A stretch of DNA of 61,264 bases from an uncultured Thermoplasmata archaeon. Its GTDB lineage: Archaea; Thermoplasmatota; Thermoplasmata; Halarchaeoplasmatales; Halarchaeoplasmataceae. The notes beneath the pieces were generated by a model. That model was given only the letters and a program-made list of their open reading frames with translations. It did no database searches and was not told where the DNA came from. Of this stretch, positions 2,644-59,676 are shown one piece after another. The DNA lies in the NCBI GenBank assembly GCA_964399335.1, contig CAYNQI010000002.1, positions 1-61,264 of the forward strand, read 5' to 3'. The translations under genes were made by a program, and so were the position numbers. Numbering within the stretch: the stretch's first letter is position 1; every line of letters begins with the position of its first letter.

Positions 2644-5600
2644 TCAACAGAATTCGTCTAAGCTAGGTGTGGAAACTTTATCGTTATCGAACAATGAGTT
2701 TATCTGCATCTCTAATTGTTCGATCCTCTGTTTAAGATATGGTGGAAGATCGAACCTTTCAGTCATCTCGATAGTCGTTCTAAGATACTTTTTTACGCTA
2801 CCTTCATGTACTGTTAAAGTTAGATTACCCCCGCATTGACATTCTCCACTCAGAGGGGGTCGTCTATATTTTCTATTACAACTAGTACATCTAGTCTCTT
2901 GAACACAGAATTTGTTAAGGTTTCCAATAAGGTCGGGTATGAAATGTGCTCCTATCACCCTACTCACAACATCTGTTGCATCAACCGCACGGATCATCTT
3001 AGCCACTTTAAGCTGTGCTTCCATCTTCTCAGTCATCTTGTCAAGTCTAGTGTATCGACTTCCGATGGGGCCCTCGGAGATATTCAATGTTTCATGAGTA
3101 TACCCAAATCCTTCGTATTGTTTTTCAGTGTGAAGTCTCTCTTCAACTATATCCATCATATCGACCAGTTCTTTCGGATTGGGATACTCGAAGGTCTTTT
3201 CGTAGAATTCTAAGGGGTACTTCCATAAGCAATCTACGTTATGGGCTTCGCTGTCGATCTCATCCGGGTTGATCTTAGTGGTTAACACTAGAGGGGCATC
3301 CATCTTTCCTCCCCTCTTTTCAGGTAAAAACTTTTGTGAGAAATTCAGCAGCCCATCCATAAGCAGCATGATACAGTCTTCGTCGCCGTCACACTGGCCG
3401 ACATACAAATCATTAGCTACTAAAGTGTGATTATCGTTAACAGTGAGTGAGTAAACATAATCATCAGAATTTTTTACTATCTTTTTATCTACAATCTCAT
3501 CAAACCAAATGTTGCAGTTATCTGTCATCAGACGTTGGGTTCCAACAGATGTATTTTCTAAGGAATCTTTAAGGGAGTTTGATTTTCTATTTGTGTCGAA
3601 ACCAATTTCTTTTTTAAATTTGACTATGTTTTTTGAAGTTATTTTAATTATGTGAGCTGTAAATATTTTATCAGTATGATCTATTCCTTTTTCCTCGTAG
3701 AATTCTTTAACTATTCCACTTGGGTCTCTTTCTTCTTTATATAGTTTTGAGTTTATTCCAAATCTCTTCAAGGAATAAATTATCTCATCTGCAAGTCTTT
3801 TACTTACTGTACTAGCTCTAATATCTAATCTTTTCGAGGAGGTTGTACCATCCCCTGAAAAATAACCAGAAAGAAAACTAGATAGACAACGTTTATTAGA
3901 TAAAAGTATTTGAGTAGGGATCTTTTTATTTTTTGCTTTATTTCCAGTACCAAGAACATTATTGAATAAGAAATATATCAGTTTACTTGAAGCTGTTATT
4001 TTCCATTCATTTTCTTCAAATGCATTTATACCTAGTTTATGTTTATATACTTTTTTTAAAAAATCTCTTGAATCTCTATCAGGTATACAAATCGTGACCT
4101 GATAAAAATTTCCTTTCTTTTTTCTAGCAAATCCTTCTGCAGTATAATATCCAATCAGTTTGCTAAAATCCTCGTCTATAGTAATATATCTATTAATGCT
4201 AATTTCGTCCCTTTTACTACCTAACTTTATTTCTTCTGGTAGAATCTCAAAAGTCTGATCCCCAAATATCTTTTTCATTATCCAATATGGAAAGCTACAC
4301 CTTTGGATATAACTAGAAATTGTTTTTTTATTAATGCCAGTCTCTTCGGATAATTTTTTAAGATAAGAGTTAGTAGAAAATTTTTGTCTAAAGGTACTTT
4401 TTAGAAAATCTGATGAAATAGATCTTATCATTATTGTTTCTTCAATATCAGGTATTTTTGATAATTCTTTTAGTAGATCAATTTTATTCTCTTTACCCTC
4501 CATCTCTATTTTTTTGGGCGAAGGAATCAAATCACCTTCCTCTAAATCGAAGGCACGGTAAAATTCGATTTTATCTCCGGCTTTTAACATCTTGTGTTGA
4601 GGGGTGACTTTAAGCTCACGTCCAGATCTTGTTTTAAATTCAATATAATGATTAGGGGCGGGATGTTTAGAAACACAGGACACTTTCATCAAAGACTCTT
4701 CACCATCTTTAGAGATTGATGGGACAAATAAGTTATCCATACCTTTATACTCGGTTCCAAAATCGTCATATTTTGTATCCCCCCGGGTAAGTTCTTTTTC
4801 AACTATCTCTTCAATTGGCTTCAATGTCCAATCGCCCTTAGATTTAATCCATAATTTGGTATCCGGGGAAAAACAATTCCTCCGCTTTGCAGCATGGAAG
4901 AATGGATGAGCGTATCCCGCCTTTCCTTCATGATAACCGATCAATCTTCCCAGGACCCCACCAGAAGTATGAGGTGCTAATCCGACAACTAGTTCACCGA
5001 TGAGGTCCTCCTTTCTTTCAGCTTCGTAGAAAGGGTCTATATCATAGTATTTTTCAAGTAGATCATCAACGAATTTAGCTATCTTGACTAAATACATCCC
5101 CGCAGCCCTAGATGCGATAAAATCCTGGGTTTTCAACTCTAACATTTGATCCGAATCTTCTAACGGTTCTCCATGGATGTCTTTCTTATAACCTAATTTT
5201 CTAGCTTTATCAACACTGAGTCCGATCTCTTCAGGTTTAAAATGAGTGACTGGAAGGTCTGTCATGTCATATCGGCAGGTGCCGTCTTTAAAGACCCAGA
5301 TGTTGTGTTTAGCCCTTAAGATCGCCTTTTCAAGTGCCTCTGGGGTCTTCTCCTTGGTCATTAGTCCTTTGACACCTTTAACCCTCTTAACATTCCCGCC
5401 CTCTCCTATGTTCCTTAGTGCTTCTCTGTATTTACTAGCCATATCTAACTTCTGTTTCTTTGGACCACCGTTTCCCATGTCATTTTCCAATAATTCCCTC
5501 CTCCCTCCACAGGTACACCTGATCTGGGCACCACTCTTGCCGCATTTACTACACCTCCTGGCACTGACCTCGACTTCTATTATCCCGTTCTCCACTGCTT

Positions 5601-7398
5601 TATTGACTAATCTCTGATTTCCTCCGGCGCTACCCAAAGGAAACAGCCCGTGTACCGGTGGGTTCATTTTCCTTTCTTTAGTTTTTTCCGGTCTAGCCAT
5701 CCTTGCGCCGATGGTGGTTGGGGCCTTGCTGCGGATCTTGACGCCCGATAACTCAGAAAGATACTCAATGAGATCCTCCTTTTGACTTTCTCCGTGAAGT
5801 TCAAGATCACCCTCTTCGATTCCAAGTGTGAACAAGAAGGGGCGATAAATCTCGACATATATTTCGTCATCCTTCAATTCATGAGGAAGACCGATATCTT
5901 CTAAAATTTTCTTTATCTCTTCATCGTTAGAAATGTACAAACCTTCATCGATACGTGAATTATCACTTACAAACTCCCTCAATCTCCGTAGTTCCGATAC
6001 CCCCACATAATCCCAGAAATAGATATATTTTGGATGTAAGGGATAGCCTTGTTCTCGACTCAATTCTACGGCTTTTTCAGGAGTCATCTCATCTTCATTC
6101 AATTCCACATCCACTTCCTGGATCCACCATTCGTGACAGTATGCAGCAGGGACCAGTGGATGATTGTTCTCCAAAAATTCGCCATAGGGTATAAGCATCT
6201 CTCCTAGGTCCAGTATCTCTTTGACCTTGCTGGTAACCTCTTTAGCCTCTTCATAATTATCTATCCTCTTTACTTTTCCATTATGGAAAAGTACCGTTGG
6301 CCCTTCGATAGTATCGCAAGGGGTTACCGCTCCAGCCTTACCGGGCCTTTCGATCTTGATCTGGGTTCCCAAGGCCATAAACTCATCGGTCAAAAACATG
6401 ACTGCTGGATTGACAGCTATAGCAGCTAAACCAAGTGTTCTACTCCTCCCATATCTCAATCTGAATCCACCCTTAACACTAGGATGGCCAAATACCGGTC
6501 TACCGGCGATGGTATCTTTTATGTACTTGAAATTTGGAGATATTCCTTCTTGTTTTTCATCGTCTGAGTCTTTTTTACTTGAAGCGAATTTTTCTATATA
6601 CTCGTCGATAAATTCCCATCCCTCGATGTCCAATTTATCTACGTATTTCTTCAATTTTTGTGCTTTAAGACACATCCCCTCGGCAAGGACCAAACATGCC
6701 CCACCTCTTACTCGATTTGTATCTACTCTAGGAAGGTTCCTATTTCCAGATACCTCTTCACTTTCAGTCCCTTCACCACTGATACTTATGGGACAACCTT
6801 TAACGATGACTTCTATCTCTTCAGCAGAAGGAGTGTATTGTAAACTTCTAGTTTTTTTGTAAAGGGGTACTTCTTCTTTGAACCTTTGTACCTCCCCCGT
6901 GGTGGCCTTGTAAGAACCGATGCCCAATTCCCTCCTGACCACATCCGCTATGAGTACACTCATAGCCTGACCGGTACCACCGGCTGAACGTATGGGACCT
7001 GCGAAGGAAAGCTCTACGTAATTTGTCCCGTCGCTGTTGTCTTTGATATCTAATCCTCCGATCCCCTCTAGTGGTGCGACGAGAATACCTTCCGTTAGAA
7101 CAGCCAAACCTATCCTCACAGCATCTTCCAAGCGCTCTTTTACAGATCCCTCATCTCTATTGGCGACTTCCCTTGCTATGTGTATGGATACTTCCTCACG
7201 GTCATATTCTTCACTCAATTCCCTGATCTTTTCGGCAGTATTCTTGACTCCTGTCAATTCCTGAGCTCTCAGGGCCAAATCCTCCGCCATGGGTATTTCT
7301 ACATCTTGTTCCGGATCGTAACCTTTACCTCTAGCTTCCCTAGCTACCGCATATGCCTTTAATGCAGACTGCTCAAGTTCATCAAAATAAGATTTCAT
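2644..7398 (-). CDS. polC: DNA polymerase II (PolD) large subunit DP2, intein-containing
   Basis: FAGPIRSAGGT, GGFRLRYGRSR, RMARPEK, DGTCRYD, HAAKRRN//CDGDED, KRGGKMDAPL, C-terminal Zn finger CTSC...CQC, PIP-like SLDEF end. Confidence 0.97.
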   Translation of the reverse strand: MKSYFDELEQSALKAYAVAREARGKGYDPEQDVEIPMAEDLALRAQELTGVKNTAEKIRELSEEYDREEVSIHIAREVANRDEGSVKERLEDAVRIGLAVLTEGILVAPLEGIGGLDIKDNSDGTNYVELSFAGPIRSAGGTGQAMSVLIADVVRRELGIGSYKATTGEVQRFKEEVPLYKKTRSLQYTPSAEEIEVIVKGCPISISGEGTESEEVSGNRNLPRVDTNRVRGGACLVLAEGMCLKAQKLKKYVDKLDIEGWEFIDEYIEKFASSKKDSDDEKQEGISPNFKYIKDTIAGRPVFGHPSVKGGFRLRYGRSRTLGLAAIAVNPAVMFLTDEFMALGTQIKIERPGKAGAVTPCDTIEGPTVLFHNGKVKRIDNYEEAKEVTSKVKEILDLGEMLIPYGEFLENNHPLVPAAYCHEWWIQEVDVELNEDEMTPEKAVELSREQGYPLHPKYIYFWDYVGVSELRRLREFVSDNSRIDEGLYISNDEEIKKILEDIGLPHELKDDEIYVEIYRPFLFTLGIEEGDLELHGESQKEDLIEYLSELSGVKIRSKAPTTIGARMARPEKTKERKMNPPVHGLFPLGSAGGNQRLVNKAVENGIIEVEVSARRCSKCGKSGAQIRCTCGGRRELLENDMGNGGPKKQKLDMASKYREALRNIGEGGNVKRVKGVKGLMTKEKTPEALEKAILRAKHNIWVFKDGTCRYDMTDLPVTHFKPEEIGLSVDKARKLGYKKDIHGEPLEDSDQMLELKTQDFIASRAAGMYLVKIAKFVDDLLEKYYDIDPFYEAERKEDLIGELVVGLAPHTSGGVLGRLIGYHEGKAGYAHPFFHAAKRRNCFSPDTKLWIKSKGDWTLKPIEEIVEKELTRGDTKYDDFGTEYKGMDNLFVPSISKDGEESLMKVSCVSKHPAPNHYIEFKTRSGRELKVTPQHKMLKAGDKIEFYRAFDLEEGDLIPSPKKIEMEGKENKIDLLKELSKIPDIEETIMIRSISSDFLKSTFRQKFSTNSYLKKLSEETGINKKTISSYIQRCSFPYWIMKKIFGDQTFEILPEEIKLGSKRDEISINRYITIDEDFSKLIGYYTAEGFARKKKGNFYQVTICIPDRDSRDFLKKVYKHKLGINAFEENEWKITASSKLIYFLFNNVLGTGNKAKNKKIPTQILLSNKRCLSSFLSGYFSGDGTTSSKRLDIRASTVSKRLADEIIYSLKRFGINSKLYKEERDPSGIVKEFYEEKGIDHTDKIFTAHIIKITSKNIVKFKKEIGFDTNRKSNSLKDSLENTSVGTQRLMTDNCNIWFDEIVDKKIVKNSDDYVYSLTVNDNHTLVANDLYVGQCDGDEDCIMLLMDGLLNFSQKFLPEKRGGKMDAPLVLTTKINPDEIDSEAHNVDCLWKYPLEFYEKTFEYPNPKELVDMMDIVEERLHTEKQYEGFGYTHETLNISEGPIGSRYTRLDKMTEKMEAQLKVAKMIRAVDATDVVSRVIGAHFIPDLIGNLNKFCVQETRCTSCNRKYRRPPLSGECQCGGNLTLTVHEGSVKKYLRTTIEMTERFDLPPYLKQRIEQLEMQINSLFDNDKVSTPSLDEFC
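3394..4875 (-). mobile_element. Intein (494 aa) with LAGLIDADG homing endonuclease in polC
   Basis: Splits RRN|CDGDED. Begins CFSPDT and ends NHTLVANDLYVGQ before the extein Cys. Block B LKVTPQHK; LAGLIDADG-like motifs LIGYYTAEG and FLSGYFSGDG. Visibly more AT- and Lys-rich than the flanking exteins. Confidence 0.95.
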
Positions 7399-38736: not shown

Positions 38737-39443
38737 GAGGATGTCAACTTAAGAATTAAAAAAGAGCATCCCATATGTTTATATGGGATCAAACATGAAT
38801 GGGATGCTCTCTAACCTAGTTAATACTTTAGAGAATAAAAACATTTTTGAAAGAGATCGAAAAGCTACTAGAACTAGAGCACTTGGTATACTGCTATATC
38901 ACTTTGGTCTGTCATTGAGGAAAACTAGAACAGTAATTTCTTCTTTTGAAAGGGTAAGTCATGAAGCTGTAAGAAAATGGTATCTTAAAGCAAAAGATAT
39001 TTTTTCCTTGCAGAAAAAACAACGCCAAGCTTTAGCAATTGACGAAACTAAAGTAAAAATTCAAGGTAAGCAGCATATACTTTGGGCTGCGATTGATATC
39101 CATAGCTGGGAAGTTTTGGGAGTCTGGATATCACAAGGTAGATCTTCAATTGAAGCTTACAGTTTCATTAAAAGCGTATTGAATAAATGTAAGAACAAGC
39201 CAAAAATCTATGTCGATGGAGGTCCATGGTACAAACCAGCACTGAATAGATTGGGTATAGAATGGGAACATGTTACCTTCGGAAATAGAAATCCGATCGA
39301 ACAATGGTTTGGAATACTAAAACAAAGAATAAAGTTATTTTACAAACGATGGCCACATAATGCTAGTGTTGAAACAGCACAACACTGGCTTGAATCGTTT
39401 GTAAGTATGTACCACTTTACGAGGTGATTAAGTTGACATCCTC
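38737..39443 (+). mobile_element. IS6-family insertion sequence, 707 bp, intact ends
   Basis: Perfect 16-bp terminal IRs GAGGATGTCAACTTAA (38737-38752) and TTAAGTTGACATCCTC (39428-39443). 8-bp direct repeat GCTTAATC at 38729-38736 and 39444-39451. Confidence 0.95.
38783..39427 (+). CDS. IS6-family DDE transposase
   Basis: AIDETKVK...LWAAID...YVDGGPWY...NPIEQWFGILKQR. Confidence 0.93.
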   Translation: MGSNMNGMLSNLVNTLENKNIFERDRKATRTRALGILLYHFGLSLRKTRTVISSFERVSHEAVRKWYLKAKDIFSLQKKQRQALAIDETKVKIQGKQHILWAAIDIHSWEVLGVWISQGRSSIEAYSFIKSVLNKCKNKPKIYVDGGPWYKPALNRLGIEWEHVTFGNRNPIEQWFGILKQRIKLFYKRWPHNASVETAQHWLESFVSMYHFTR

Positions 39444-48125: not shown

Positions 48126-49100
48126 ATGAACAAAAAGAATCTTGCTGACAGGCTGCTGGATGCTATAGATGATAAGAAGAACCCGTCGGTTGTAGGGCTG
48201 GATCCTCGGATCAATAGGATCCCGGACCACATCAAAGAAGAGGCCGGCGACAGAGCGGACACTCCTTTCGAAGCGGTCAGATACTCCTTCGAAGAATTCA
48301 ATAAATCGATCATCGATGAGATAAAAGATATCGTTCCTGCGGTGAAGCCACAGGTAGCCTTTTACGAACAGTATGGCAGTCATGGTATGAGAGCATTCGA
48401 AGAAACCATAGATTATGCTAAAGATAAAGGACTGATAGTCATCTCCGACGTTAAGAGGAACGATATAGGCAGTACTGCTGAAGCTTATGCATCCGCTCAT
48501 CTCGGAGAGGTAGAAAGGATAAACAGGGAATTCACATCTTCCTTTGACTCAGACATGGTGACCGTCAACGCTTACCTTGGATCAGATGGAGTGGAACCGT
48601 TTTTAGATGTATGCAAAAAATATGGGAAAGGTATATTCATATTGGTCAAGACTTCTAATCCTTCTTCCGGGGAGCTTCAGGACAAGGAGATAGAAGGTGA
48701 AGGGAAAGTTTACGAGCTCATGGCCGAGTTAGTTAAGGGATGGGGTGATGATCTGGTTGGAAACAGAGGTTACTCATCCGTTGGTGCAGTTGTTGGTGCA
48801 ACATATCCCGAAGAAGCGGAAAAGTTGAGGAAAATGATGAAAAAGGCAATATTCTTAGTACCTGGCTATGGAGCTCAGGGTGGAACTGCCGATGATATAA
48901 TACCATGTTTCAATGATGATGGTTACGGGGGTATAGTTAATTCATCAAGAGGGATCATCTTCGCATATGAAAGGGAACCATATTCTGAAAAATTTGGAGA
49001 GGAGAATTTTGCCAAAGCATCTAGACAGGCAACTCTGGATATGAAAGATGATATTCAAAAATCTCTAAAAAAAGGAAAAAAAGTTCCTAAGGGATGGTGA
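48126..49100 (+). CDS. pyrF: Orotidine-5'-phosphate decarboxylase (long, subfamily-2 type)
   Basis: VVGLDP, KPQVAFYE, DVKRNDIGST, TVNAYLG, LVKTSNP, GAVVGATYP, LVPGYGAQGG, NSSRGII. Confidence 0.93.
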   Translation: MNKKNLADRLLDAIDDKKNPSVVGLDPRINRIPDHIKEEAGDRADTPFEAVRYSFEEFNKSIIDEIKDIVPAVKPQVAFYEQYGSHGMRAFEETIDYAKDKGLIVISDVKRNDIGSTAEAYASAHLGEVERINREFTSSFDSDMVTVNAYLGSDGVEPFLDVCKKYGKGIFILVKTSNPSSGELQDKEIEGEGKVYELMAELVKGWGDDLVGNRGYSSVGAVVGATYPEEAEKLRKMMKKAIFLVPGYGAQGGTADDIIPCFNDDGYGGIVNSSRGIIFAYEREPYSEKFGEENFAKASRQATLDMKDDIQKSLKKGKKVPKGW

Positions 49101-49124
49101 CAGAGGCCACCACTCCTTTTTGTT
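49092..49124 (+). terminator. Hairpin plus T-tract at the end of pyrF
   Basis: Stem GGATGGTG / CACCACTCC (one bulge) with an 8-nt loop, followed by TTTTTGTT. Confidence 0.45.
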
Positions 49125-49125
49125 C

Positions 49126-49188
49126 TTAATACTGTCCAGTCAATAACCTTGCTTCACTATATTTTTGGCTCGGGTAATTTCTTATCAT
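49126..49188 (-). CDS. 20-aa micropeptide, copy B (MIRNYPSQKYSEARLLTGQY)
   Basis: Manual translation; AGGTGA RBS upstream; 15/20 identical to copy A with the same length. Not in ORF track. Confidence 0.7.
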   Translation of the reverse strand: MIRNYPSQKYSEARLLTGQY

Positions 49189-49219
49189 CTCTTTCACCTT
49201 CTTTTTTCTTTTTTCGTTT

Positions 49220-49282
49220 TCAATACTGGCCTGACAACATTCTTGCCTCACTATATTCCTGGCTTGGGTATGTTCTCTTCAT
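49220..49282 (-). CDS. 20-aa micropeptide, copy A (MKRTYPSQEYSEARMLSGQY)
   Basis: Manual translation; GTGAG RBS-like element; TTATATAAATA TATA-like box at 49325-49315; paralogue of copy B. Confidence 0.7.
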   Translation of the reverse strand: MKRTYPSQEYSEARMLSGQY

Positions 49283-49520
49283 TTTTCTCACGATAATAGC
49301 ATAGCTAGTGATGTATTTATATAATTCTTGAAAATAATAATAGATAAGTGCAATATCGTGTTAGAAATGATCAACTTTGAAGTTGAAAAAGCAAGTCTGG
49401 CTTACAAATACTTATATTATTTATGCATTATCTAAATACCGGCTATTTTCCCGCTTTACCGAAGATCACTTCCAAAATGCTTTTATCTAAAAACCTCACT
49501 GCTCCACTTGAGTGGATAAT

Positions 49521-50864
49521 ATGGGCCAAGAAAGAACCCAAGAAGAGATATCCAGCGATCTCGACGATGCTACTTTCGTAGACATAGTCGATATACTGGA
49601 AGGCCAGCACACAGGAAAAGAAGTCAGTATCCGAGGATGGATACATCGTGAAAGAGATATCGGTAATATGGTGTTTTTGAACGTGCGTGATCCATCTGGG
49701 ATAGTTCAAGTTACCATCGCAAAGGACAACTTCGATGAGAATAAGTTCGAAGATATCAAAAAACTGCTGGTCGAAACTTCTCTTAAGGTTCGGGGTGAAG
49801 TGGCTGAAGACTACAGAGCTCCAGGAGGTTACGAGCTAAGAGCCTCGGATGTAGAGATAGTCCACGCCTCAGATGATTTCCCGATCCATAAGGACCAAAG
49901 TGTTGAGCACTTACTGGATAACCGTCATCTATGGATACGTTCAACACGGATGAGGGATATACTTTCTATCCGTTCTACAGTTTTTGGAGCTATTCACGAA
50001 TTCTTTAGAAAGAATGGGTACAAAGAATTTCAATCACCGATCATAACACCGCTAGCTTGTGAAGGTGGTGCGACTTTATTCCCTGTTGACTATTTTGATG
50101 AGGAAGTATATCTCACTCAAAGCTGGCAGCTTTATGCAGAAGCGGCCATATTTGGATTGGGGAATTTGTACACGATCGCACCCAGTTTTAGAGCGGAAAA
50201 ATCCAGAACTCCTAGACATCTGACTGAATTCTGGCATGCCGAGATGGAAGGACTTTGGTTAGATAACGATGATCTAATAGATATGGGGGAGGGTCTGGTT
50301 CTCCATATCGCTAAAAAGGTGTTAGAAGAGAATAGAGAAGAGATGGAGAACATACATGATGAGGGAATTGAATATCTAGAAAAGCTAGAAGGGCCTTTCC
50401 CAAGGATCACCTATGATGAAGCAGTAGAAAAGTTGAAAGATGCCGGTATGGATGTAAATTACGGTGACGATCTCGGAGTTCCAGAAGAGAAAAAACTCAC
50501 ATCTATGTTCGATAAACCGGTGTTTGTTACACATTATCCAAAAGAGATCAAAGCATTCTACATGAAAAGGGATGAGAAAGATCCAGATAAAGTATTAGGA
50601 TACGACCTTATGGTACCTCATGTCGGTGAACTGATAGGAGGTAGTGTCCGGGAAACGGAGGTTGATTCTTTGATAGATAGACTTGAAGAGGAAGGAGAAG
50701 ATCCATCGAATTATGACTGGTTCTTGGATACTCGAAGATACGGTAGTGTTCCCCATGCCGGGTACGGTTTGGGTATCGAACGTGTGATCATGTGGTTGTG
50801 CAACCTGGACCATATCCGAGACGCCATCGCTTTCCCGCGAACTCCGAATAGGTGTAGACCCTGA
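49521..50864 (+). CDS. asnS: Asparagine--tRNA ligase
   Basis: RGWIHRER, HLLDNRHLWIR, YLTQSWQLYAE, FRAEKSRTPRHLTEFWHAE, KAFYMK, GELIGGSVRE, YGSVPHAGYGLGIER. Confidence 0.93.
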   Translation: MGQERTQEEISSDLDDATFVDIVDILEGQHTGKEVSIRGWIHRERDIGNMVFLNVRDPSGIVQVTIAKDNFDENKFEDIKKLLVETSLKVRGEVAEDYRAPGGYELRASDVEIVHASDDFPIHKDQSVEHLLDNRHLWIRSTRMRDILSIRSTVFGAIHEFFRKNGYKEFQSPIITPLACEGGATLFPVDYFDEEVYLTQSWQLYAEAAIFGLGNLYTIAPSFRAEKSRTPRHLTEFWHAEMEGLWLDNDDLIDMGEGLVLHIAKKVLEENREEMENIHDEGIEYLEKLEGPFPRITYDEAVEKLKDAGMDVNYGDDLGVPEEKKLTSMFDKPVFVTHYPKEIKAFYMKRDEKDPDKVLGYDLMVPHVGELIGGSVRETEVDSLIDRLEEEGEDPSNYDWFLDTRRYGSVPHAGYGLGIERVIMWLCNLDHIRDAIAFPRTPNRCRP

Positions 50865-50936: not shown

Positions 50937-51971
50937 ATGGAACCCTTAGATGACTTGTTGAACCTGAAACTTCTCAGACATATTGTATCAGGGAATTACG
51001 TCAAAGCCAATATTAGCTTTTTATCCCGGGAACTGGGGATCCACCGGGCTACAGCAAAAAGAAAACTGAACATGCTATATGAAAACAATATTTTGAACCC
51101 GCCACTATATCCATTTCCTTACCTATTCGAAAAAAATCCTCTATTGGTTTTAGTCAAAGCGGATATGCCCAGAACATCAGATGCTATCACCTTCTTCAAA
51201 GAAGATTCCCATATATTTGGAGCATTTTCATGTATGGAAGGGTCCTACAACACTCTGCTTATAGAATTCTTCGAAGACCTAGAATCTTACCATTTGTGGA
51301 GAGAACAGATCGTAAAAGATAAGAAGATCCCGTCTAGAGAGAACCGTGTACCAGCACACGCTGAGATATTCAGTAATAAACTCACATTCAAGTATGACCC
51401 AAATTGTTTCATAAGACCGATTAAAAAACAGTGGAAAATTGACGGGAATTTAGAACTTAACGGCATCCATTTCGATGAAACTTCGTTCCAACTGCTAGAA
51501 CTTTTATTGAGGGGGGATTGTTTCAGAACTAACGCCTCGGCAATAGGTAGAGAGATCGGTGCTGATCGAAAAACCGTAAGGAGGCGGATAGAAACTTTAC
51601 TAGAGAATGGTGTAATAGAGGAACCGTGCTGTTTTTTCAAAAACCTATTCGTACCACCAGGCTATAATTTTGTAGTTTCTTTGATAGAAGTGAAATCCAA
51701 AGTAGACAGTGTAAAAAAATATATTACGAGAGATGACCACGTCCCTAGAGCAGTAGAAACAAGTACAGAAAGGTATAACTTCCTTCTGTTTTCAGCCTTT
51801 GAAAACATCGAAGATTTCTTCGACTGGGGTGAGAGGTTAAATTTTAACTTTCCAGGAAGTATCGGTGCGATCTCGAATACTATATTGTCATCAAAGATGA
51901 TACATACTATCAAACCTCACAAGGTCTCTTTAGGTCTTATCGAGAGGCAGTTGTGGGAGATTGAACATTGA
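50937..51971 (+). CDS. Tandem (duplicated) Lrp/AsnC-like transcriptional regulator
   Basis: Two HTH halves (ISFLSRELGIHRATAKRKLNMLYENNIL; ASAIGREIGADRKTVRRRIETLLENGVI), each followed by a RAM-like segment (GSYNTLLIEFF; RYNFLLFSAF). Confidence 0.7.
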   Translation: MEPLDDLLNLKLLRHIVSGNYVKANISFLSRELGIHRATAKRKLNMLYENNILNPPLYPFPYLFEKNPLLVLVKADMPRTSDAITFFKEDSHIFGAFSCMEGSYNTLLIEFFEDLESYHLWREQIVKDKKIPSRENRVPAHAEIFSNKLTFKYDPNCFIRPIKKQWKIDGNLELNGIHFDETSFQLLELLLRGDCFRTNASAIGREIGADRKTVRRRIETLLENGVIEEPCCFFKNLFVPPGYNFVVSLIEVKSKVDSVKKYITRDDHVPRAVETSTERYNFLLFSAFENIEDFFDWGERLNFNFPGSIGAISNTILSSKMIHTIKPHKVSLGLIERQLWEIEH

Positions 51972-53490: not shown

Positions 53491-56478
53491 ATGAAGAATC
53501 GAGAAGACGAGATAAAAAAAACTATCGAGGAGATAACCGGGATAACCCCAAAAACAGAGAAGGAAGATAAGGGAGATGAATATCTTAGGGCATCCTATGT
53601 AGAAAATGTCCTGATCATTTCCCCTCCCTTCGATTATTTTTTATTCGAGGAAGAAGGTAGGTTAGAAGAACTCTTTGACGATGTATTTGGAGGTAGGGAA
53701 TTTGGTCCAGTACCAAATGTGATCCATGTGGAAAATGGTGGTGAAGGAAAGGATGTCTTGGATGACACCAAGATAGACCTGATAATAGTTTTCAGTGAAC
53801 CCATGGATATGGAACTGTTGAAATTCTCTGGTATGGTCAAGGATGATCATCCTGATATCCCCATAGTTTTGATCAGCAACGATACAGTAGAGATCAAAGA
53901 GATACTAAGAGAAGACAGTAAAGATACCATCGAAGAAGCTTTCACATGGTACGGGGACGGTAGGATAATCCTCAGTATTATCCAGTATATCGAAGATAAG
54001 AAAAATCTTGAAAACGAGGTACTTTCGAAAGATGGAAAGGCTATATTGCTGATAGAGGATTCTATCCAGTTCTATTCAAAATATCTGCCGTTGATTTATG
54101 AAGAGATATGGCATTACCTCGACTCTGTAATCGAAGACGACCTACCAAAAAAGATCAAGAGTAAAAGATACTGGAGTAAACCTTTCATTCTATTCGCTTC
54201 CGATATACGGAAGGGGAAGGATCTTTATAATAGATATCACGATAATTTGATATGTATAGTGACTGATAATCACTGTGGTTCAGACAACGAAGAACATCCG
54301 GGACTCGATTTTGCTCTACAAGTCGAGAAAGAGAGAGAAGACCTTTCTATTTTAGTTCAATCCTCGGAACCTATAGAAGGGTTCCCTGAAGATAGCGATA
54401 TAGAATTCATTTTAAAGGACTCTCCTGTACTCACTTCCAAGATCGGTGAGTTCGTTAGGAAAAATATAGGACCGTTAGAGCTAATTTTTAAAAATGAAGT
54501 CGGAACTGAATTGGCGGTCGTAGATGGTCTTAAAGGACTCGAAGAAGCTTTATGGAATATCGATAACGAGATCTTAGAAAAGTATCTCATGGAAAGTCAG
54601 ATAACTACCTGGTTAAGAGCTAGAGCTGAGTATGTCTTAGCTGAGGAGATAGAAAACCTCTCAAAGGAGGGAGAGAAAGAAGAGTTGAAAAGCCAGCTTA
54701 TCAACATCTTAGAAGAGCACAGATACAGATATCATCAAGGCACGATAACGAATTTCGAGAGAAGAAGGGAGAATCACTATAGCAAGATCAGCAGGATCGG
54801 AAAAGGTGCATTAGGTGGGAAAGCAAGAGGATTAGCTTTCATGGCTAAGATACTGTCAAAATATGTCACAGACGAGATGTTCGATGGCTTACGTATCACA
54901 GTCCCTAGAAGTGTGGTACTATCAACAGAGGTTTATGATAAATTTCTCGAGAAAAATGATCTTATTAATGATAACATCGATCTGATGTCCGATCAAAGGA
55001 TATCATCTAAATTCATCGATGGTTCCTTGTCAGCGACTGTATTAGGCGATCTTAGATCCTTTGTTAGAAACACGAAAACACCTCTTATCGTTCGTTCTTC
55101 TGGTTTATTGGAAGATTCATTGATGCAGCCCTTTGCCGGTATCTATTCTTCAGTATTACTTCCTAATGACTCATGGGAAACGGATCTTAGGTTCAAAGAA
55201 GTCTGTAACGCCATCAAACATGTCTATGCATCGGCATTCTTCGAAAAAGCAAGGACCTACCTGATGTCCACACCTAAGAAATTAGGGGATGAAAAGATGG
55301 CGGTGATGATTCAGGAAGTGGTCGGAAAAAAACATGGTAAATATTTTTATCCCGATATATCTGGTGTGGCTAAATCGTACAATCATTATCCTTCTGGTCC
55401 ATGCAGTTCTGAAGATGGTATAGTTTATCTTGCCCTTGGTCTTGGTAAAGCAGTGGTTGACGGGAGCAACACTTTCTGTTTCTGCCCAGAACATCCCAAA
55501 ATTCCTTTATCGGGTACCCCAAAAGATTTTATGAAGTACTCTCAGACCGACTTGTATGCAGTTGATCTTGAATCCGTTTACAAACGGATAAAAAAGGACG
55601 AAGAAACATCACTCGTTAAATTGAAACTAGACGAAGTAAAGAAACATGGTGTACTCGATAAGACTGTATCTACTTTTTCCCTGAGGAACGATAGGTTATA
55701 TCCAGGTACTGCCCATGAGGGTCCTATGGTGGTCGATTTTGGTCCCATAGTGAAATATAATTCAGTACCTCTCGCAAAGGCTTTGAAGATGCTGTTGAAG
55801 GTAAGTAGGATAGCATTAGGTTATCCCGTTGAGATAGAATTCGCAGTAAATCTAAACAAAGGAAAAAATGAACCCGCGGAACTAGTCATACTCCAGATAA
55901 GAAGTATGATCACGACCGAGAGTTTTTTAGATATGGATATCGATGAATATAAGGAAGATGAACTAATCTGTAAAAGTCAGAACGCCATAGGATATGGAGT
56001 GATCGGGGATATAAGAGACGTGATTTATATCAAATATGACGAGTTCGACTTCAAGGATTCTCAGAGCGTTGTTGAAAAACTTAGAAGATTAAACAAACGT
56101 TTGATGGATGATAAAAGACCTTATATTTTGGTCGGTCCAGGGAGATGGGGATCCTCTGATGAGTGGTTGGGTATCCCGGTCTTATGGAGTGATATTGCCG
56201 GGGCAAGGATCATAGTAGAAACCACGACTGCAGGTAGGCACATCGATCCTTCCCAAGGCTCTCATTTCTTCCATGACATGATCTCTTCTCAAGCTGGATA
56301 TATGATAGCGGATTCAGAAAATATTGATTGGGACTGGTTGAGATCTCAACAGATAGTAGAAAAACTAGAAGATATTGTCCATGTTAGAACCAAAGAACCA
56401 TTAGAAGTCATGATAGATGGAAAAGAGGGTAAAGGTGTCATCAAAAAGTCTAAAAAGGATGTTGAAGAAGATAATTGA
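53491..56478 (+). CDS. PEP-synthase/PPDK nucleotide-binding (ATP-grasp) domain protein with N-terminal receiver-like domains
   Basis: REC-like segments (ILLIEDS, CIVTD, ILVQSS), GGKARGLAF, VRSSGLLEDS, FAGIYSS, IQEVVG, LQIR, GPGRWGS, QGSHFF. No pyruvate-binding TIM barrel. Confidence 0.85.
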   Translation: MKNREDEIKKTIEEITGITPKTEKEDKGDEYLRASYVENVLIISPPFDYFLFEEEGRLEELFDDVFGGREFGPVPNVIHVENGGEGKDVLDDTKIDLIIVFSEPMDMELLKFSGMVKDDHPDIPIVLISNDTVEIKEILREDSKDTIEEAFTWYGDGRIILSIIQYIEDKKNLENEVLSKDGKAILLIEDSIQFYSKYLPLIYEEIWHYLDSVIEDDLPKKIKSKRYWSKPFILFASDIRKGKDLYNRYHDNLICIVTDNHCGSDNEEHPGLDFALQVEKEREDLSILVQSSEPIEGFPEDSDIEFILKDSPVLTSKIGEFVRKNIGPLELIFKNEVGTELAVVDGLKGLEEALWNIDNEILEKYLMESQITTWLRARAEYVLAEEIENLSKEGEKEELKSQLINILEEHRYRYHQGTITNFERRRENHYSKISRIGKGALGGKARGLAFMAKILSKYVTDEMFDGLRITVPRSVVLSTEVYDKFLEKNDLINDNIDLMSDQRISSKFIDGSLSATVLGDLRSFVRNTKTPLIVRSSGLLEDSLMQPFAGIYSSVLLPNDSWETDLRFKEVCNAIKHVYASAFFEKARTYLMSTPKKLGDEKMAVMIQEVVGKKHGKYFYPDISGVAKSYNHYPSGPCSSEDGIVYLALGLGKAVVDGSNTFCFCPEHPKIPLSGTPKDFMKYSQTDLYAVDLESVYKRIKKDEETSLVKLKLDEVKKHGVLDKTVSTFSLRNDRLYPGTAHEGPMVVDFGPIVKYNSVPLAKALKMLLKVSRIALGYPVEIEFAVNLNKGKNEPAELVILQIRSMITTESFLDMDIDEYKEDELICKSQNAIGYGVIGDIRDVIYIKYDEFDFKDSQSVVEKLRRLNKRLMDDKRPYILVGPGRWGSSDEWLGIPVLWSDIAGARIIVETTTAGRHIDPSQGSHFFHDMISSQAGYMIADSENIDWDWLRSQQIVEKLEDIVHVRTKEPLEVMIDGKEGKGVIKKSKKDVEEDN

Positions 56479-56538: not shown

Positions 56539-59500
56539 ATGGATGAGGATGTTAACGTCGAAAATAGAATTGAAAAGGAAATCGAGGATAAGATAACCCC
56601 TAGGAAGGAATTGGATGAACTTCAAGAACGGGTGAAAGAACTCAACTGTATCTATGGTATATCCGAGATAGTTAACGATGACAATTTATCATTAGAAGAA
56701 GCTTTGCAAAAGATCGTGGAACTACTTCCCCCATCTTGGCAGTATGAAGATATCGCTTGTGCTAGGATAAAATTGAACGGTGAAGAGTATAAGACGGATG
56801 ATTTTCGAGAAACGGAGTGGAAACAGCAGAGTATAATAGAAGTTGGGGGGGAGATTAAAGGGTCTCTAGAAGTATGCTATCTAGAGGAAAAACCCGAGAT
56901 AGATGAAGGACCGTTTCTCATCGAAGAACGGAGACTTCTGAACACTGTTTCTGATCTTTTAGGAAGGTTCATAGAAGAAAGAAGGGTGAAGAAACAGATC
57001 TCAGATGAAAAACAGGATTGGGAAGTTATCATAGACCTGTTGATGAGGACTGATCCTAAGACCCTTCTCAGGATGACCCGAAAGATGGTGTATTACCTTT
57101 ACAGACATGAGAACGAACAGATCTCGATGCTTTTGAATGATGTGTGTCCCATCGAACCCGATTCTGACACACCAAAATGGTGTGGGATAAATATGCCAAA
57201 TCCTAAACAGGATCTAGAGTCATTGAAAGAGATCCAGAAAAGTGTGTTTCAGATTGCAAAAGATAGTTTAGAACCGGAAGAGATATCTGAACTCTTTCAT
57301 AGATGGTTGAAGGAAGATAAAGCTAGACCGTTACTACTTGCTTCTCAAAGGAAGGGTATACCTTTGGTTGAGATAACAGATGAGCTCAATCGTTTTTTCG
57401 AAAAAGCTGATGCAAATACAGCTCTAGCTCCCGAGGATAAGATGGCTATCAGAACAGCCCTTATCCAAAGGTTTTTCACCGATAGATTGGAGTTCATCAA
57501 CATCGCAAAAAATTACATCCAATTGGATGATTTTGTCTCTTTATTGAAACGGCTCATCGGTCCTGCCCAAGGTGCTGGTAAAGTAGGTGGTAAAACCTCT
57601 GGGGCATATCTAGCCTATAAGATCCTTCAAAGGGAGAAGGATAGACACCCTGATCTCAAAGACATCAAGTTCCCCAAAAGTTGGTATCTTACGTCGGATT
57701 CTATGCTAGACCTGATACATTATAACGACTTGGATGAAGTTATACACATAAAATATCTCGATCCAGATAGGATCAGACAAGAACAGCCATTCCTCGAACA
57801 GATCATGAAGAATGCTGTATTCACTTCAGAGATCGTTGAGGGATTTAAAAAGATCCTCAGGGATATAGACGATAATCCGATAATAGTAAGATCCTCTAGT
57901 CTCCTTGAAGACAACTTCGGAGCAGCCTTTTCAGGCAAATACAAGAGTCTCTTTTTATCAAACAAAGGTTCTGAAGAGGAAAGATTGAATGCTCTCATGG
58001 AAGCGGTCGCCGAGGTGTATGCGTCTACTTTTGGTCCGGATCCCATAGAGTATCGTCGAGAAAAAGGGATGTTAGATTTCAGTGAAGAGATGGGGATACT
58101 TATTCAAGAGGTCGTGGGTAAAAGGGTAGGTCCATATTATGTTCCAGCCTATGCGGGTGTTGCTTTCAGTAAGAACGAGTTCAGATGGTCACCTCGTATC
58201 AATAGAGATGATGGGATAATCAGATTAGTACCCGGATTGGGAACTAGAGCAGTTGATAGAGTGGGTAATGACTATCCTATCTTGGTTTCTCCTAAAAGAC
58301 CTGAACTCAGGGTGAATACACTGGTTGAAGAGCGGATAAAGTACTCTCCACGATACATGGATGTCATAAATCTTGAAACTGGAGCTATAGAAACCGTTGA
58401 TGCCATAGAGATATACAAGAAATATGGAGAGAAATTTCCGTTCCTTGACAAGATCGTGTCGGTGTATGAGGATGGTGAACTTAGAAAACCTAAAAGCTTT
58501 TTATTCGATCCTGAAGAAGAGGATATGATAGTAACCTTCGATAAGCTGTTCGAAGAGACTGACTTCTTACTTTTGATGTGTAAGATAATGGATATACTCG
58601 AAAGTAAGATAGAGACACCTGTCGATGTTGAATTCGCTCATGATGGAGATAATCTTTACATCCTTCAGTGTCGCCCTCAAAGCCAGACTCAACAGATAAA
58701 ACGTAAACCTATCCCCATGGACATAAAGAACAAGGATAAACTGTTCTCCAGTAAAAAATTTGTCACCACCGGTCACCTAGAGAACATTGAATATATAGTG
58801 TATGTTTCTCCAGAAGGATACGCAAGTCTCGATAGCGAACGTAAGATGAGAAAAGTAGCTGATATAGTTGGAGAATTGAACAACAGTCTCCCTGAGAAAA
58901 GGTTCATATTGATGGGACCCGGGAGATGGGGAAGCCGGGGAGATATCACTCTTGGGGTACCGGTGAAGTACAGGGATATCAACAATACTTCATTGATAGT
59001 AGAGATAGCTAAAGAAAAAGGTGGATATTTACCAGAATTATCTTTTGGAACTCACTTTTTCCAGGATCTAGTTGAGGCCGATATAAAATACTTACCTCTT
59101 TATCCAGATGAGTCCGGAAACATCTTCAACGAAGAATTGTTGTATAGGTCAGAGAATCGACTGACCGAGATACTTCCTGGACAGGAGGATTTCGAAGAAG
59201 TTATCCGGTTAGTCCGGGTCAGTGATATCAGTTCAGGCGGTTCCTTAGATGTTGTCATGGACGGCGAAGCCAACGAAGCTCTAGCTTATCTAAGGTCTCC
59301 AGACCATTGGGAATGGAGGATGAATAAAGTGGAAACCATGGCAGATGAGTTGGACCCGGATATATACGGGGTTAAAGGCCTATATATCGTTGGGAGCACA
59401 AAAGAAGGTACAGCTTGTTCTAGAAGCGACATTGATCTTATAGTCCATTATACAGGAGAGCAAGAAAAGAAGGAAAAGTTGGAGAACTGGTTCTATGGAT

Positions 59501-59676
59501 GGGATAAAAAATTAGTTGAAGAAAATAAGGATAGGACGGGTATTGAAGTGGATAAAATATTAGACATCCATTTCATAACTGATGAGGATATAAAAGAAAA
59601 TACCTCATGGGCTTCACATATAAATTCTAGATATAGATCAGCCCGGGAGATCCCCTTGGATGGTAGTGATTCATGA
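56539..59676 (+). CDS. GAF-like + PEP-synthase ATP-grasp + C-terminal nucleotidyltransferase fusion protein
   Basis: N-terminal ERVKELNCIYGIS...LPPSWQY...DEGPFL sensory-type domain; GGKTSG, VRSSSLLEDN, FSGKYKS, LQCRPQ, GPGRWGS, FGTHFF; Pol-beta NTase motif GS(952)-x10-DID...DIH. Confidence 0.85.
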   Translation: MDEDVNVENRIEKEIEDKITPRKELDELQERVKELNCIYGISEIVNDDNLSLEEALQKIVELLPPSWQYEDIACARIKLNGEEYKTDDFRETEWKQQSIIEVGGEIKGSLEVCYLEEKPEIDEGPFLIEERRLLNTVSDLLGRFIEERRVKKQISDEKQDWEVIIDLLMRTDPKTLLRMTRKMVYYLYRHENEQISMLLNDVCPIEPDSDTPKWCGINMPNPKQDLESLKEIQKSVFQIAKDSLEPEEISELFHRWLKEDKARPLLLASQRKGIPLVEITDELNRFFEKADANTALAPEDKMAIRTALIQRFFTDRLEFINIAKNYIQLDDFVSLLKRLIGPAQGAGKVGGKTSGAYLAYKILQREKDRHPDLKDIKFPKSWYLTSDSMLDLIHYNDLDEVIHIKYLDPDRIRQEQPFLEQIMKNAVFTSEIVEGFKKILRDIDDNPIIVRSSSLLEDNFGAAFSGKYKSLFLSNKGSEEERLNALMEAVAEVYASTFGPDPIEYRREKGMLDFSEEMGILIQEVVGKRVGPYYVPAYAGVAFSKNEFRWSPRINRDDGIIRLVPGLGTRAVDRVGNDYPILVSPKRPELRVNTLVEERIKYSPRYMDVINLETGAIETVDAIEIYKKYGEKFPFLDKIVSVYEDGELRKPKSFLFDPEEEDMIVTFDKLFEETDFLLLMCKIMDILESKIETPVDVEFAHDGDNLYILQCRPQSQTQQIKRKPIPMDIKNKDKLFSSKKFVTTGHLENIEYIVYVSPEGYASLDSERKMRKVADIVGELNNSLPEKRFILMGPGRWGSRGDITLGVPVKYRDINNTSLIVEIAKEKGGYLPELSFGTHFFQDLVEADIKYLPLYPDESGNIFNEELLYRSENRLTEILPGQEDFEEVIRLVRVSDISSGGSLDVVMDGEANEALAYLRSPDHWEWRMNKVETMADELDPDIYGVKGLYIVGSTKEGTACSRSDIDLIVHYTGEQEKKEKLENWFYGWDKKLVEENKDRTGIEVDKILDIHFITDEDIKENTSWASHINSRYRSAREIPLDGSDS

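Follow-up and report, generated by a model that had tools for sequence, protein, structure and literature searches.

Comparative evidence for a lineage-restricted family of micropeptide genes in uncultured halophilic Thermoplasmatota

Bacterial leader and arrest peptides, represented by BmrB-bmrCD, the tet(L), erm and cat leaders, TnaC and SpeFL, include regulators of efflux genes, and MntS and SgrT are small soluble bacterial regulators of transporters. In Archaea, Ribo-seq has revealed proteins that small open reading frames (sORFs) encode, among them sP26 of Methanosarcina mazei, which binds glutamine synthetase, and the product of a 20-amino-acid (aa) sORF on the small RNA (sRNA) sRNA154, for which a dual function has been proposed (PMC11456600); the small proteome of Haloferax volcanii has also been described (PMC10117724). 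Here we describe a pair of 20-codon ORFs, pepA and pepB, in a 61,264-nucleotide (nt) stretch of DNA from an uncultured Thermoplasmata archaeon of the Halarchaeoplasmataceae (contig CAYNQI010000002.1 of assembly GCA_964399335.1; hereafter the window). Comparison across related loci identifies them as members of a new, unannotated and lineage-restricted micropeptide family, of the known kind of sORF-encoded small proteins.

The two ORFs lie on the minus strand between pyrF and asnS, which encode OMP decarboxylase and asparagine-tRNA ligase, respectively (Table 1). An initial annotation, made from the sequence of the window, had described two minus-strand ORFs of equal length at these positions, identical at 15 of 20 residues and ending in TGA and TAA, with five synonymous codon differences; every one of these details is correct, the synonymous differences being Pro CCA/CCG, Gln CAG/CAA, Glu GAG/GAA, Arg AGA/AGG and Gly GGC/GGA. 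Between pepA and pepB, 15 nucleotides differ, split 3/3/9 over codon positions 1, 2 and 3; on its own this split is suggestive, amounting to only modest coding evidence (P = 0.03 for at least 9 of 15 at one position). The underlying DNA repeat spans 81 nt at 75% identity with a spacing of 94 nt, and exceeds each ORF end by ~9 nt, upstream over the Shine-Dalgarno (SD) region (GTGA.A.A.ATG) and downstream over A.AAC.AAAA. No motif copy besides pepA and pepB was found in the 61-kb window.

To find relatives, a degenerate DNA pattern for YPSQxYSEAR...G was scanned against 185,579 species-representative genomes (596 Gb) and against JGI metagenomes. The genome scan, for which ~2 matches are expected by chance, returned six loci, all in metagenome-assembled genomes (MAGs) of Ca. 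Saliniplasma or of Thermoplasmata and Thermoplasmatota from soda lakes. Of the eight stretches returned from the metagenomes, six were true copies, all from soda-lake sediments, and two were chance matches within long ORFs. In the collections scanned, true copies of the YPSQ motif are confined to Ca. Saliniplasma and soda-lake Thermoplasmatota, and the initial annotation had rightly pointed to Thermoplasmatota. Saliniplasma belongs to the MAG-only order 'Ca. Halarchaeoplasmatales', halophiles thought to use a salt-in strategy (PMC11332174), with which the strongly acidic predicted proteome of the window is consistent. A viral origin was rejected, neither the peptide pattern nor the promoter pattern described below being present in IMG/VR.

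Intact pepA-type copies, both orthologous and paralogous and alike in start, length and stop, were recovered from comparison loci L002, L005, L009 and L011-L014, and pepB orthologues with many synonymous changes occupy the same pyrF/asnS position in L001, L003-L006 and L021. Copy number ranges from one to three per locus, with extra cassettes elsewhere. A search with a 40-aa concatenation showed that the only public protein entries covering them are P0241 and P0242, from JGI contigs (e.g., SL_5KL_010_SEDDRAFT_10000116). These entries are annotation artefacts, in which the gene call reads the TGA stop as Trp and continues into the spacer.

All 17 YPSQ copies, each a 20-codon ORF, and all relatives of 29-32 aa are intact, with ATG and stop fixed across 27 loci and the window; frame-breaking changes, which the initial annotation had named as a sign against coding, were absent from the homologous DNA compared. 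Among 14 unique copies, the inferred changes at the three codon positions numbered 10/10/28 (P = 3e-4), and the mean proportions of non-synonymous and synonymous differences were 0.11 (pN) and 0.46 (pS), with a pN/pS of 0.24; the window pair differs by a pS of 0.71 and a pN of 0.14. The core YPSQxYSEARxL alters almost solely synonymously, and a serine codon switches between AGC and TCC (TCC in L006, AGC in the other copies). In the Natronoplasma-type loci L025 and L028, 8 synonymous and 6 non-synonymous codon differences separate the two ORFs, and over the last 17 sense codons (13-29) the counts are 8 versus 1, a synonymous bias that points to protein-level selection independently in a second genus. 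No overlapping antisense gene is present that could have caused the conservation. Thus pepA and pepB are very probably protein-coding genes under purifying selection, and the description of them as real coding genes in a small operon is strongly supported by the codon-position split, the low pN/pS and the intact ORFs.

The family extends beyond the YPSQ form. L001/L021, L003, L004 and L006 had seemed to be single-copy until a 29-codon first cistron, MRRTNTNGKIRGLYTTGTLDEVRLLTGLN, was recognised at the pepA position, behind the same promoter and SD. A syntenic check through pyrF and asnS homologues, which in the sister genera are 69-77% and 71-81% identical, respectively, revealed a diverged cassette in L016/17, L022, L025 and L028/29 and a promoter without a micro-ORF in L030/31; in L015, L018-L020, L023, L024 and L026 this check found no cassette. 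Apart from that of L022, all relatives can be aligned in their C-terminal 19 residues, as R-x-x-[YF]-[PT]-[ST]-..., and what sets the longer forms apart is an added basic N-terminal extension. Family members share a length of 20-32 aa, a basic N-terminus and the [YF]-[PT]-[ST] core, with a C-terminus of the form ...E-x-R-L-L-T-G-x-x in Saliniplasma; in the YPSQ copies residues 2-4 and 19-20 vary and the middle is invariant. The motif noted in the initial annotation, YPSQxYSEAR..GQY, is not a signature of the family but the Saliniplasma-specific form of this wider family, which on the present comparison is restricted to 'Ca. Halarchaeoplasmatales', an order of halo(alkali)philic Thermoplasmatota.

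The pair is preceded by a strongly conserved promoter. The flanks had been described as not conserved, which holds between the two window copies but not between genomes, where conservation within the locus peaks in the ~120 nt upstream of pepA. These ~120 nt before the first ATG align gap-free across at least four genera and 12 loci, with profile E-values of 1e-21 to 5e-33, and the TATA-like box that had been noted ahead of the first ORF is among the conserved elements, its sequence ATATAAATA being near-invariant in all 12 loci. The intergenic remainder up to asnS is much less conserved than the promoter. The nhmmer profile built from these loci detected no second promoter copy or regulon member within the window. 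From the usual archaeal TATA-to-start spacing, the transcript would begin ~10 nt upstream of the pepA ATG. Farther upstream lies a palindrome, TTCAAC-N6-GTTGAA, whose half-sites are retained in all Saliniplasma loci and also in L022 and L030, and in L017 flank an altered spacer (TTCAAC-CCGCAG-GTTGAA). A gene conserved directly downstream of asnS in Saliniplasma and L022 encodes a 344-aa protein with two winged-helix helix-turn-helix (HTH) regions. This protein is a candidate binder of the palindrome (site sequence TTCAACTTCAAAGTTGAA).

An SD-like element had been claimed for each ORF. For pepB this holds in full, as its 6-nt AGGTGA has a strength reached by 1.3% of random 15-mers, but pepA has only a weak GTGA(G), in a context, ATCGTGAGAAA(A/G)ATG, that is kept across genera. 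Matches of at least 5 nt to the SD consensus precede 26% of the window genes versus 6% of background 15-mers, indicating that the organism uses SD sequences. Longer ORFs from upstream starts were rejected: for the in-frame GTG 9 nt upstream, which forms part of the SD AGGTGA, a TAA comes before the ATG in L001 and the frame is lost in L004, and an upstream ATG is missing from the window and L006. Past pepB, a hairpin is retained in L001 and L003-L006 with G-U or compensating variants, and together with the T-tracts behind it looks like a terminator common to the convergent pyrF and the micropeptide unit. On this anatomy, the unit is defined as much by its conserved, putatively regulated promoter and shared terminator as by its ORFs.

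Table 1. Positions of features at the pepA-pepB locus, in related loci and elsewhere in the window
Feature	Location	Positions	Strand	Remarks
pepA, MKRTYPSQEYSEARMLSGQY	window	49282-49220	minus	20 codons + TGA stop, 63 nt; first cistron
pepB, MIRNYPSQKYSEARLLTGQY	window	49188-49126	minus	20 codons + TAA stop, 63 nt; second cistron
A-rich inter-cistron spacer	window	49200-49219	minus	pepA stop to pepB ATG, 31 nt in all
Whole conserved promoter region	window	49279-49402	minus	12-locus profile, nhmmer E = 5e-32
Palindromic operator-like site, TTCAACTT-CA-AAGTTGAt	window	49370-49387	minus	half-sites TTCAAC/GTTGAA, ~55 nt upstream of TATA box
Conserved upstream promoter block, ATTGCACTTATCTATTATTATTTTCAAGAA	window	49325-49354	minus	cross-locus alignment
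TATA box, TTATATAAATA	window	49314-49324	minus	32-42 nt upstream of pepA ATG
Weak SD-like GTGAG	window	49287-49291	minus	4 nt upstream of pepA ATG, in predicted short 5' leader
SD AGGTGA	window	49194-49199	minus	5 nt upstream of pepB ATG; in every pepB copy
Putative terminator hairpin, GGAGTGGTGG-cctctg-TCACCATCC	window	49092-49116		starts 10 nt past pepB stop; overlaps convergent pyrF stop codon (49098-49100)
Two T7 tracts	window	49067-49083	minus	after hairpin on peptide strand, inside pyrF 3' end; archaeal-type termination signal
Intergenic region	window	49101-49511		flanked by pyrF and asnS
pyrF	window	48126-49100	plus	
asnS	window	~49521-50864	plus	
344-aa double winged-helix HTH protein gene	window	50937-51971	plus	
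29-aa paralogue	L001	3988-4077	minus	
29-aa paralogue	L003	508-597	plus	
29-aa paralogue	L004	3059-3148	minus	
29-aa paralogue	L006	7474-7563	minus	
Micro-ORF, MRKMRQNERSRRVRYIFPSYETGLMKILTGK	L016/17			same promoter
Micro-ORFs, MIRNKRFQEKRTGYPSYEYANPLATTAGR and MIGSKKFQERRAGYPSYEYANPLAVTAGR	L025, L028/29			same promoter
Micro-ORF, MMKKANMQKKMDMFSVLNSGRTDYRLDQFELK	L022			same promoter; barely alignable
Exporter alone	L030/31	2754-2869	minus	
Micro-ORF and exporter	L022	2696-2929	minus	
Micro-ORF, hairpin and exporter operon	L017	7390-7721	minus	
Cassette	L002	1725-2189		between GajB-like UvrD/PD-(D/E)XK and AbiEii-AbiEi
Cassette	L013	2190-2655		between GajB-like UvrD/PD-(D/E)XK and AbiEii-AbiEi
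Cassette	L011	2826-3290		between 2831-aa protein and AbiEi-AbiEii
Cassette	L009	9051-9370		between 2831-aa protein and AbiEi-AbiEii
Cassette	L012	3121-3427		beside AbiL/AriA-like ATPase (upstream)
Insertion	L005	4813-6237	minus	metallo-beta-lactamase-fold gene at 5042-5929
IS240-type DDE transposase domain ORF	window	38783-39427	plus	E = 2e-13
PPDK_N-domain protein, first	window	53491-56478	plus	~1000 aa
PPDK_N-domain protein, second	window	56539-59676	plus	~1000 aa

Four arrangements occur behind this one promoter. The exporter may stand alone, as in L030/31, where the ATG of an MFS_3 exporter gene takes the aligned position of the micro-ORF ATG; the micro-ORF may be followed after 16 nt by an MFS_3 gene with the SD GAGGT (L022), or by a terminator-like hairpin with T6 and then an ABC-2 exporter operon (L017); and in the native loci of Saliniplasma and of the Natronoplasma type, free-standing micro-ORFs are followed only by the terminator and the convergent pyrF. 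The micro-ORF is not a remnant of an MFS N-terminus, a possibility rejected because the MFS N-termini are unrelated to the peptides.

The promoter, pepA, pepB, a hairpin terminator of their own and a further 130 nt upstream make up a cassette of ~470 bp that is found again, 92-97% identical, in at least three other contexts. Each is among defence-type genes, with one of two AbiE modules on the downstream side and, upstream, a GajB-like helicase-nuclease, an AbiL/AriA-like ATPase or a 2831-aa protein (Table 1). In L005, the pepA/pepB pair is separated from a third peptide gene by an inserted metallo-beta-lactamase-fold gene. A peptide gene and the terminator have been duplicated there, and sequence of the terminator and pyrF end stands on either side of the insert, as in a target duplication.

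The peptides are hydrophilic (GRAVY -0.6 to -1.3), with no hydrophobic stretch, and their pI of 8.2-11.4 compares with mostly 4.3-5.5 for the window proteome. They gave no match in Pfam, NCBIfam or PDB sequences (E <= 10), and a type I toxin was rejected because peptides of this hydrophilicity offer no transmembrane helix.

We put at an even chance the reading in which a regulated, bicistronic small mRNA yields peptides that act in trans on some partner. An independent minus-strand transcription unit of ~230 nt would be read from the conserved promoter with its palindrome and TATA box, probably under transcription-factor control, and its short-leader mRNA would end at the hairpin and T-tract terminator common to the convergent pyrF. 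Both cistrons would be translated into soluble, hydrophilic, basic 20-aa peptides, pepB through its strong AGGTGA and pepA near the 5' end. The peptides would then act on a macromolecular partner, which may be an exporter or another protein or, given their charge, the ribosome or RNA. Comparison establishes the conserved ORFs, the protein-level selection, the anatomy of promoter, SD and terminator, and the phyletic distribution; transcription, translation, action in trans and the partner itself we infer. The persistence of purifying selection where no same-strand gene follows, in Saliniplasma and Natronoplasma, together with tandem duplication, further copying and the resulting copy number, argues that the product itself matters and is functional.

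Several points weigh against this reading. Its basis is comparative, in organisms known only from MAGs, and does not directly separate action in trans from action in cis. The L022 peptide can scarcely be aligned with the other family members, the final two residues are variable (QY, QN, LN, LY, K, GR), and the exporter arrangements in L022, L017 and L030 fit a cis-regulatory leader, at least ancestrally. Moreover, the last 57 nt of the 29-aa paralogue are 100% identical in four species (P ~7e-7); in pyrF of the same species, 23-39% of third positions differ, 47% of the codons conserved at the aa level are identical in nucleotides, and the longest invariant run is 17 nt. Such nucleotide invariance indicates that some family transcripts carry an extra RNA- or DNA-level function and hints that the transcript of the 29-aa paralogue is dual-function, from which the window copies, with their many synonymous changes, are excepted. 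The invariant 68-nt segment has a fold z-score of ~0 on both strands, with no overlapping ORF and no Rfam family, and no complementary target of at least 13 nt was found in the loci searched.

The best-surviving alternative, though a doubtful one, is that these are cis-acting leader ORFs, whose translation, perhaps with nascent-peptide pausing, controls termination or translation downstream, as leader peptides do at bacterial efflux genes; in Saliniplasma, control would fall on read-through past the shared terminator, antisense to pyrF, or the ORFs would be recent orphans. The same promoter does precede the exporter genes of L022, L017 and L030, but a leader position is occupied by the micro-ORF only in L022 and arguably in L017: in the window, as in the native Saliniplasma and Natronoplasma loci, no same-strand gene lies downstream and a strong terminator faces pyrF. 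A size of 20-32 aa, a conserved C-proximal segment and a basic N-terminus of variable length would suit peptides working within the ribosomal tunnel, as those of the TnaC, SpeFL and AAP type do, yet the stop-adjacent residues vary. In L025 an arm of the terminator stem, GGACCGGAT, falls inside the ORF; beyond the terminator, whole-transcript folding revealed no significant alternative structure, with z-scores (-0.45 and -0.28) no better than those of shuffles. Selection that persists on an ORF that has been tandemly duplicated and copied elsewhere also speaks against a leader, and we know of no archaeal precedent for leader-peptide control.

A cis-leader function is nevertheless likely to be ancestral and is possibly still active where an exporter follows. 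Its probable beginning, for the micro-ORF, was as leader or first cistron to an exporter gene divergent from asnS; in the simplest history it later became free-standing and was duplicated in Saliniplasma. An unlikely but more far-reaching version would make the family an archaeal counterpart of the bacterial efflux-gene leader peptides, a nascent-peptide or translation-sensing first cistron with a dedicated, operator-controlled promoter, which in Saliniplasma and Natronoplasma was freed from its exporter, kept, duplicated and even copied to defence islands. There it would be dual-function, through the peptide in trans and, in some species, through the RNA as well, in view of the 57 invariant nt. 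If true, leader-peptide-type control would have its first description from Archaea, and the passage of an upstream ORF into a stand-alone micropeptide gene would be documented.

It is quite improbable that the peptides are precursors or substrates of an export system, either as secreted signalling or antimicrobial peptides or as a type of ribosomally synthesized and post-translationally modified peptide (RiPP) with a distant maturase or transporter. RiPP and pheromone loci typically hold tiny precursor genes as tandem paralogues in varying copy number, as seen here, and in L017 and L022 the positional homologues are followed by ABC-2 and MFS_3 exporters. However, the RiPP-like precursor proposed in the initial annotation finds no modifying enzyme, neither in the conserved neighbourhood nor within ~10 kb. 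The conserved neighbours encode a DEAD helicase, a nitroreductase-family protein, OMP decarboxylase, AsnRS, an HTH protein and Gdh, and the other window genes scanned are housekeeping. In the neighbourhood and in 20 genes (11.6-61.3 kb), we found no radical-SAM, YcaO, lanthipeptide, ATP-grasp, ThiF/MccB or peptidase-type maturase, the scans together taking in all large ORFs between 38.8 kb and the end of the window; the absence of an adjacent maturase had already been noticed in the initial annotation. Neither a signal peptide nor a double-glycine leader is present, and conservation runs opposite to the leader-conserved, core-variable pattern of precursors, as the N-terminus and last two residues vary and the middle and C-terminal part are fixed. 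Some copies end in Asn and the locus adjoins asnS, a superficial resemblance to microcin C, but the C-terminal residue is Y in the window and N, K or R elsewhere, which breaks the invariant-Asn rule of MccA, and no ThiF-family gene is among the scanned neighbours. Mycofactocin (MftA) and PqqA were rejected likewise: GQY becomes GQN, GLN, GLY, TGK or AGR, contrary to the GVY rule of MftA, the E-x3-Y motif with pqqB-E that defines PqqA is absent, no radical-SAM gene is nearby, and no Pfam or NCBIfam precursor family matches.

No less improbable is a mainly regulatory sRNA, dual-function or non-coding, in which selection acts on base-pairing and the ORFs come second or are there by chance. A short transcript that stands free, with a strongly conserved promoter and a terminator to itself, is built like an sRNA gene; across genera the promoter surpasses the transcript in conservation, the first-cistron paralogue of L001, L003, L004 and L006 has its 57 invariant nt, and archaeal sRNAs with 20-aa sORFs, such as M. 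mazei sRNA154, are on record (PMC11456600). The window copies, however, show abundant synonymous change, conserved residues, an unvarying start and stop, and SD sites; neither a stable nor a conserved structure is present, no target of the required complementarity turned up in the loci searched, and a purely non-coding reading cannot explain the 10/10/28 split. Rfam 15 gave no hit on the window at the gathering threshold and, at E <= 10, chance-level matches only (E >= 3) around the locus and in L003.

Elsewhere, the window carries no tRNA, rRNA or Rfam-family gene in its 61 kb. Besides an ORF with an IS240-type DDE transposase domain, it encodes two adjacent ~1000-aa proteins with PPDK_N (phosphoenolpyruvate/pyruvate-binding) domains; the first is conserved beside gdhA in related loci, and the second adds a C-terminal nucleotidyltransferase domain (Table 1).

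Gene callers cannot see ORFs of only 20 codons, and the locus illustrates that for uncultured archaea comparison is enough to establish such genes, here with unusually clear support. A family with promoter, putative operator and terminator is thereby added to a still very small set of archaeal micro-proteins, and the series of four arrangements behind one promoter makes a tractable case for the interconversion of leader ORFs and stand-alone micropeptide genes. The locus concerns no question of long standing and its organisms have not been cultured, so that its immediate value lies in annotation and as a heterologous test case.

Among known systems, the closest are the archaeal sORF proteins, which the pep family resembles in its length of ~20-30 aa, its lack of annotation, its restriction to a genus or family, and its intergenic stand-alone units with their own promoter; the transcripts are possibly dual-function and the protein product is presumed to act in trans. 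No kinship in sequence was found with the M. mazei and H. volcanii proteins, and the family differs in being known from comparison rather than from Ribo-seq or mass spectrometry, and in being tandemly duplicated, tied to one promoter divergent from asnS, and basic within a salt-in acidic proteome. With the bacterial leader and arrest peptides it shares a size of 20-32 codons, a first-cistron position behind a promoter that in sister genera precedes MFS or ABC exporters, conservation towards the C-terminus and a terminator right after the ORF; unlike them, the window has two tandem ORFs and no downstream gene, no antiterminator/terminator alternative was detected, and the last residues vary. 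MccA, MftA and PqqA precursors are of similar size, and some pep copies likewise have a C-terminal Asn or G-x-Y, occur in tandem and neighbour an Asx-tRNA synthetase, but their defining residues are not conserved here and the vicinity lacks genes of the MccB, MftB/C or PqqB-E type. MntS and SgrT, finally, have no homology to the family, whose link to exporters is positional only and found in sister genera only, yet they are similarly hydrophilic and without a transmembrane segment, stand under regulated promoters, and show that the link to a transporter need not be one of adjacency.

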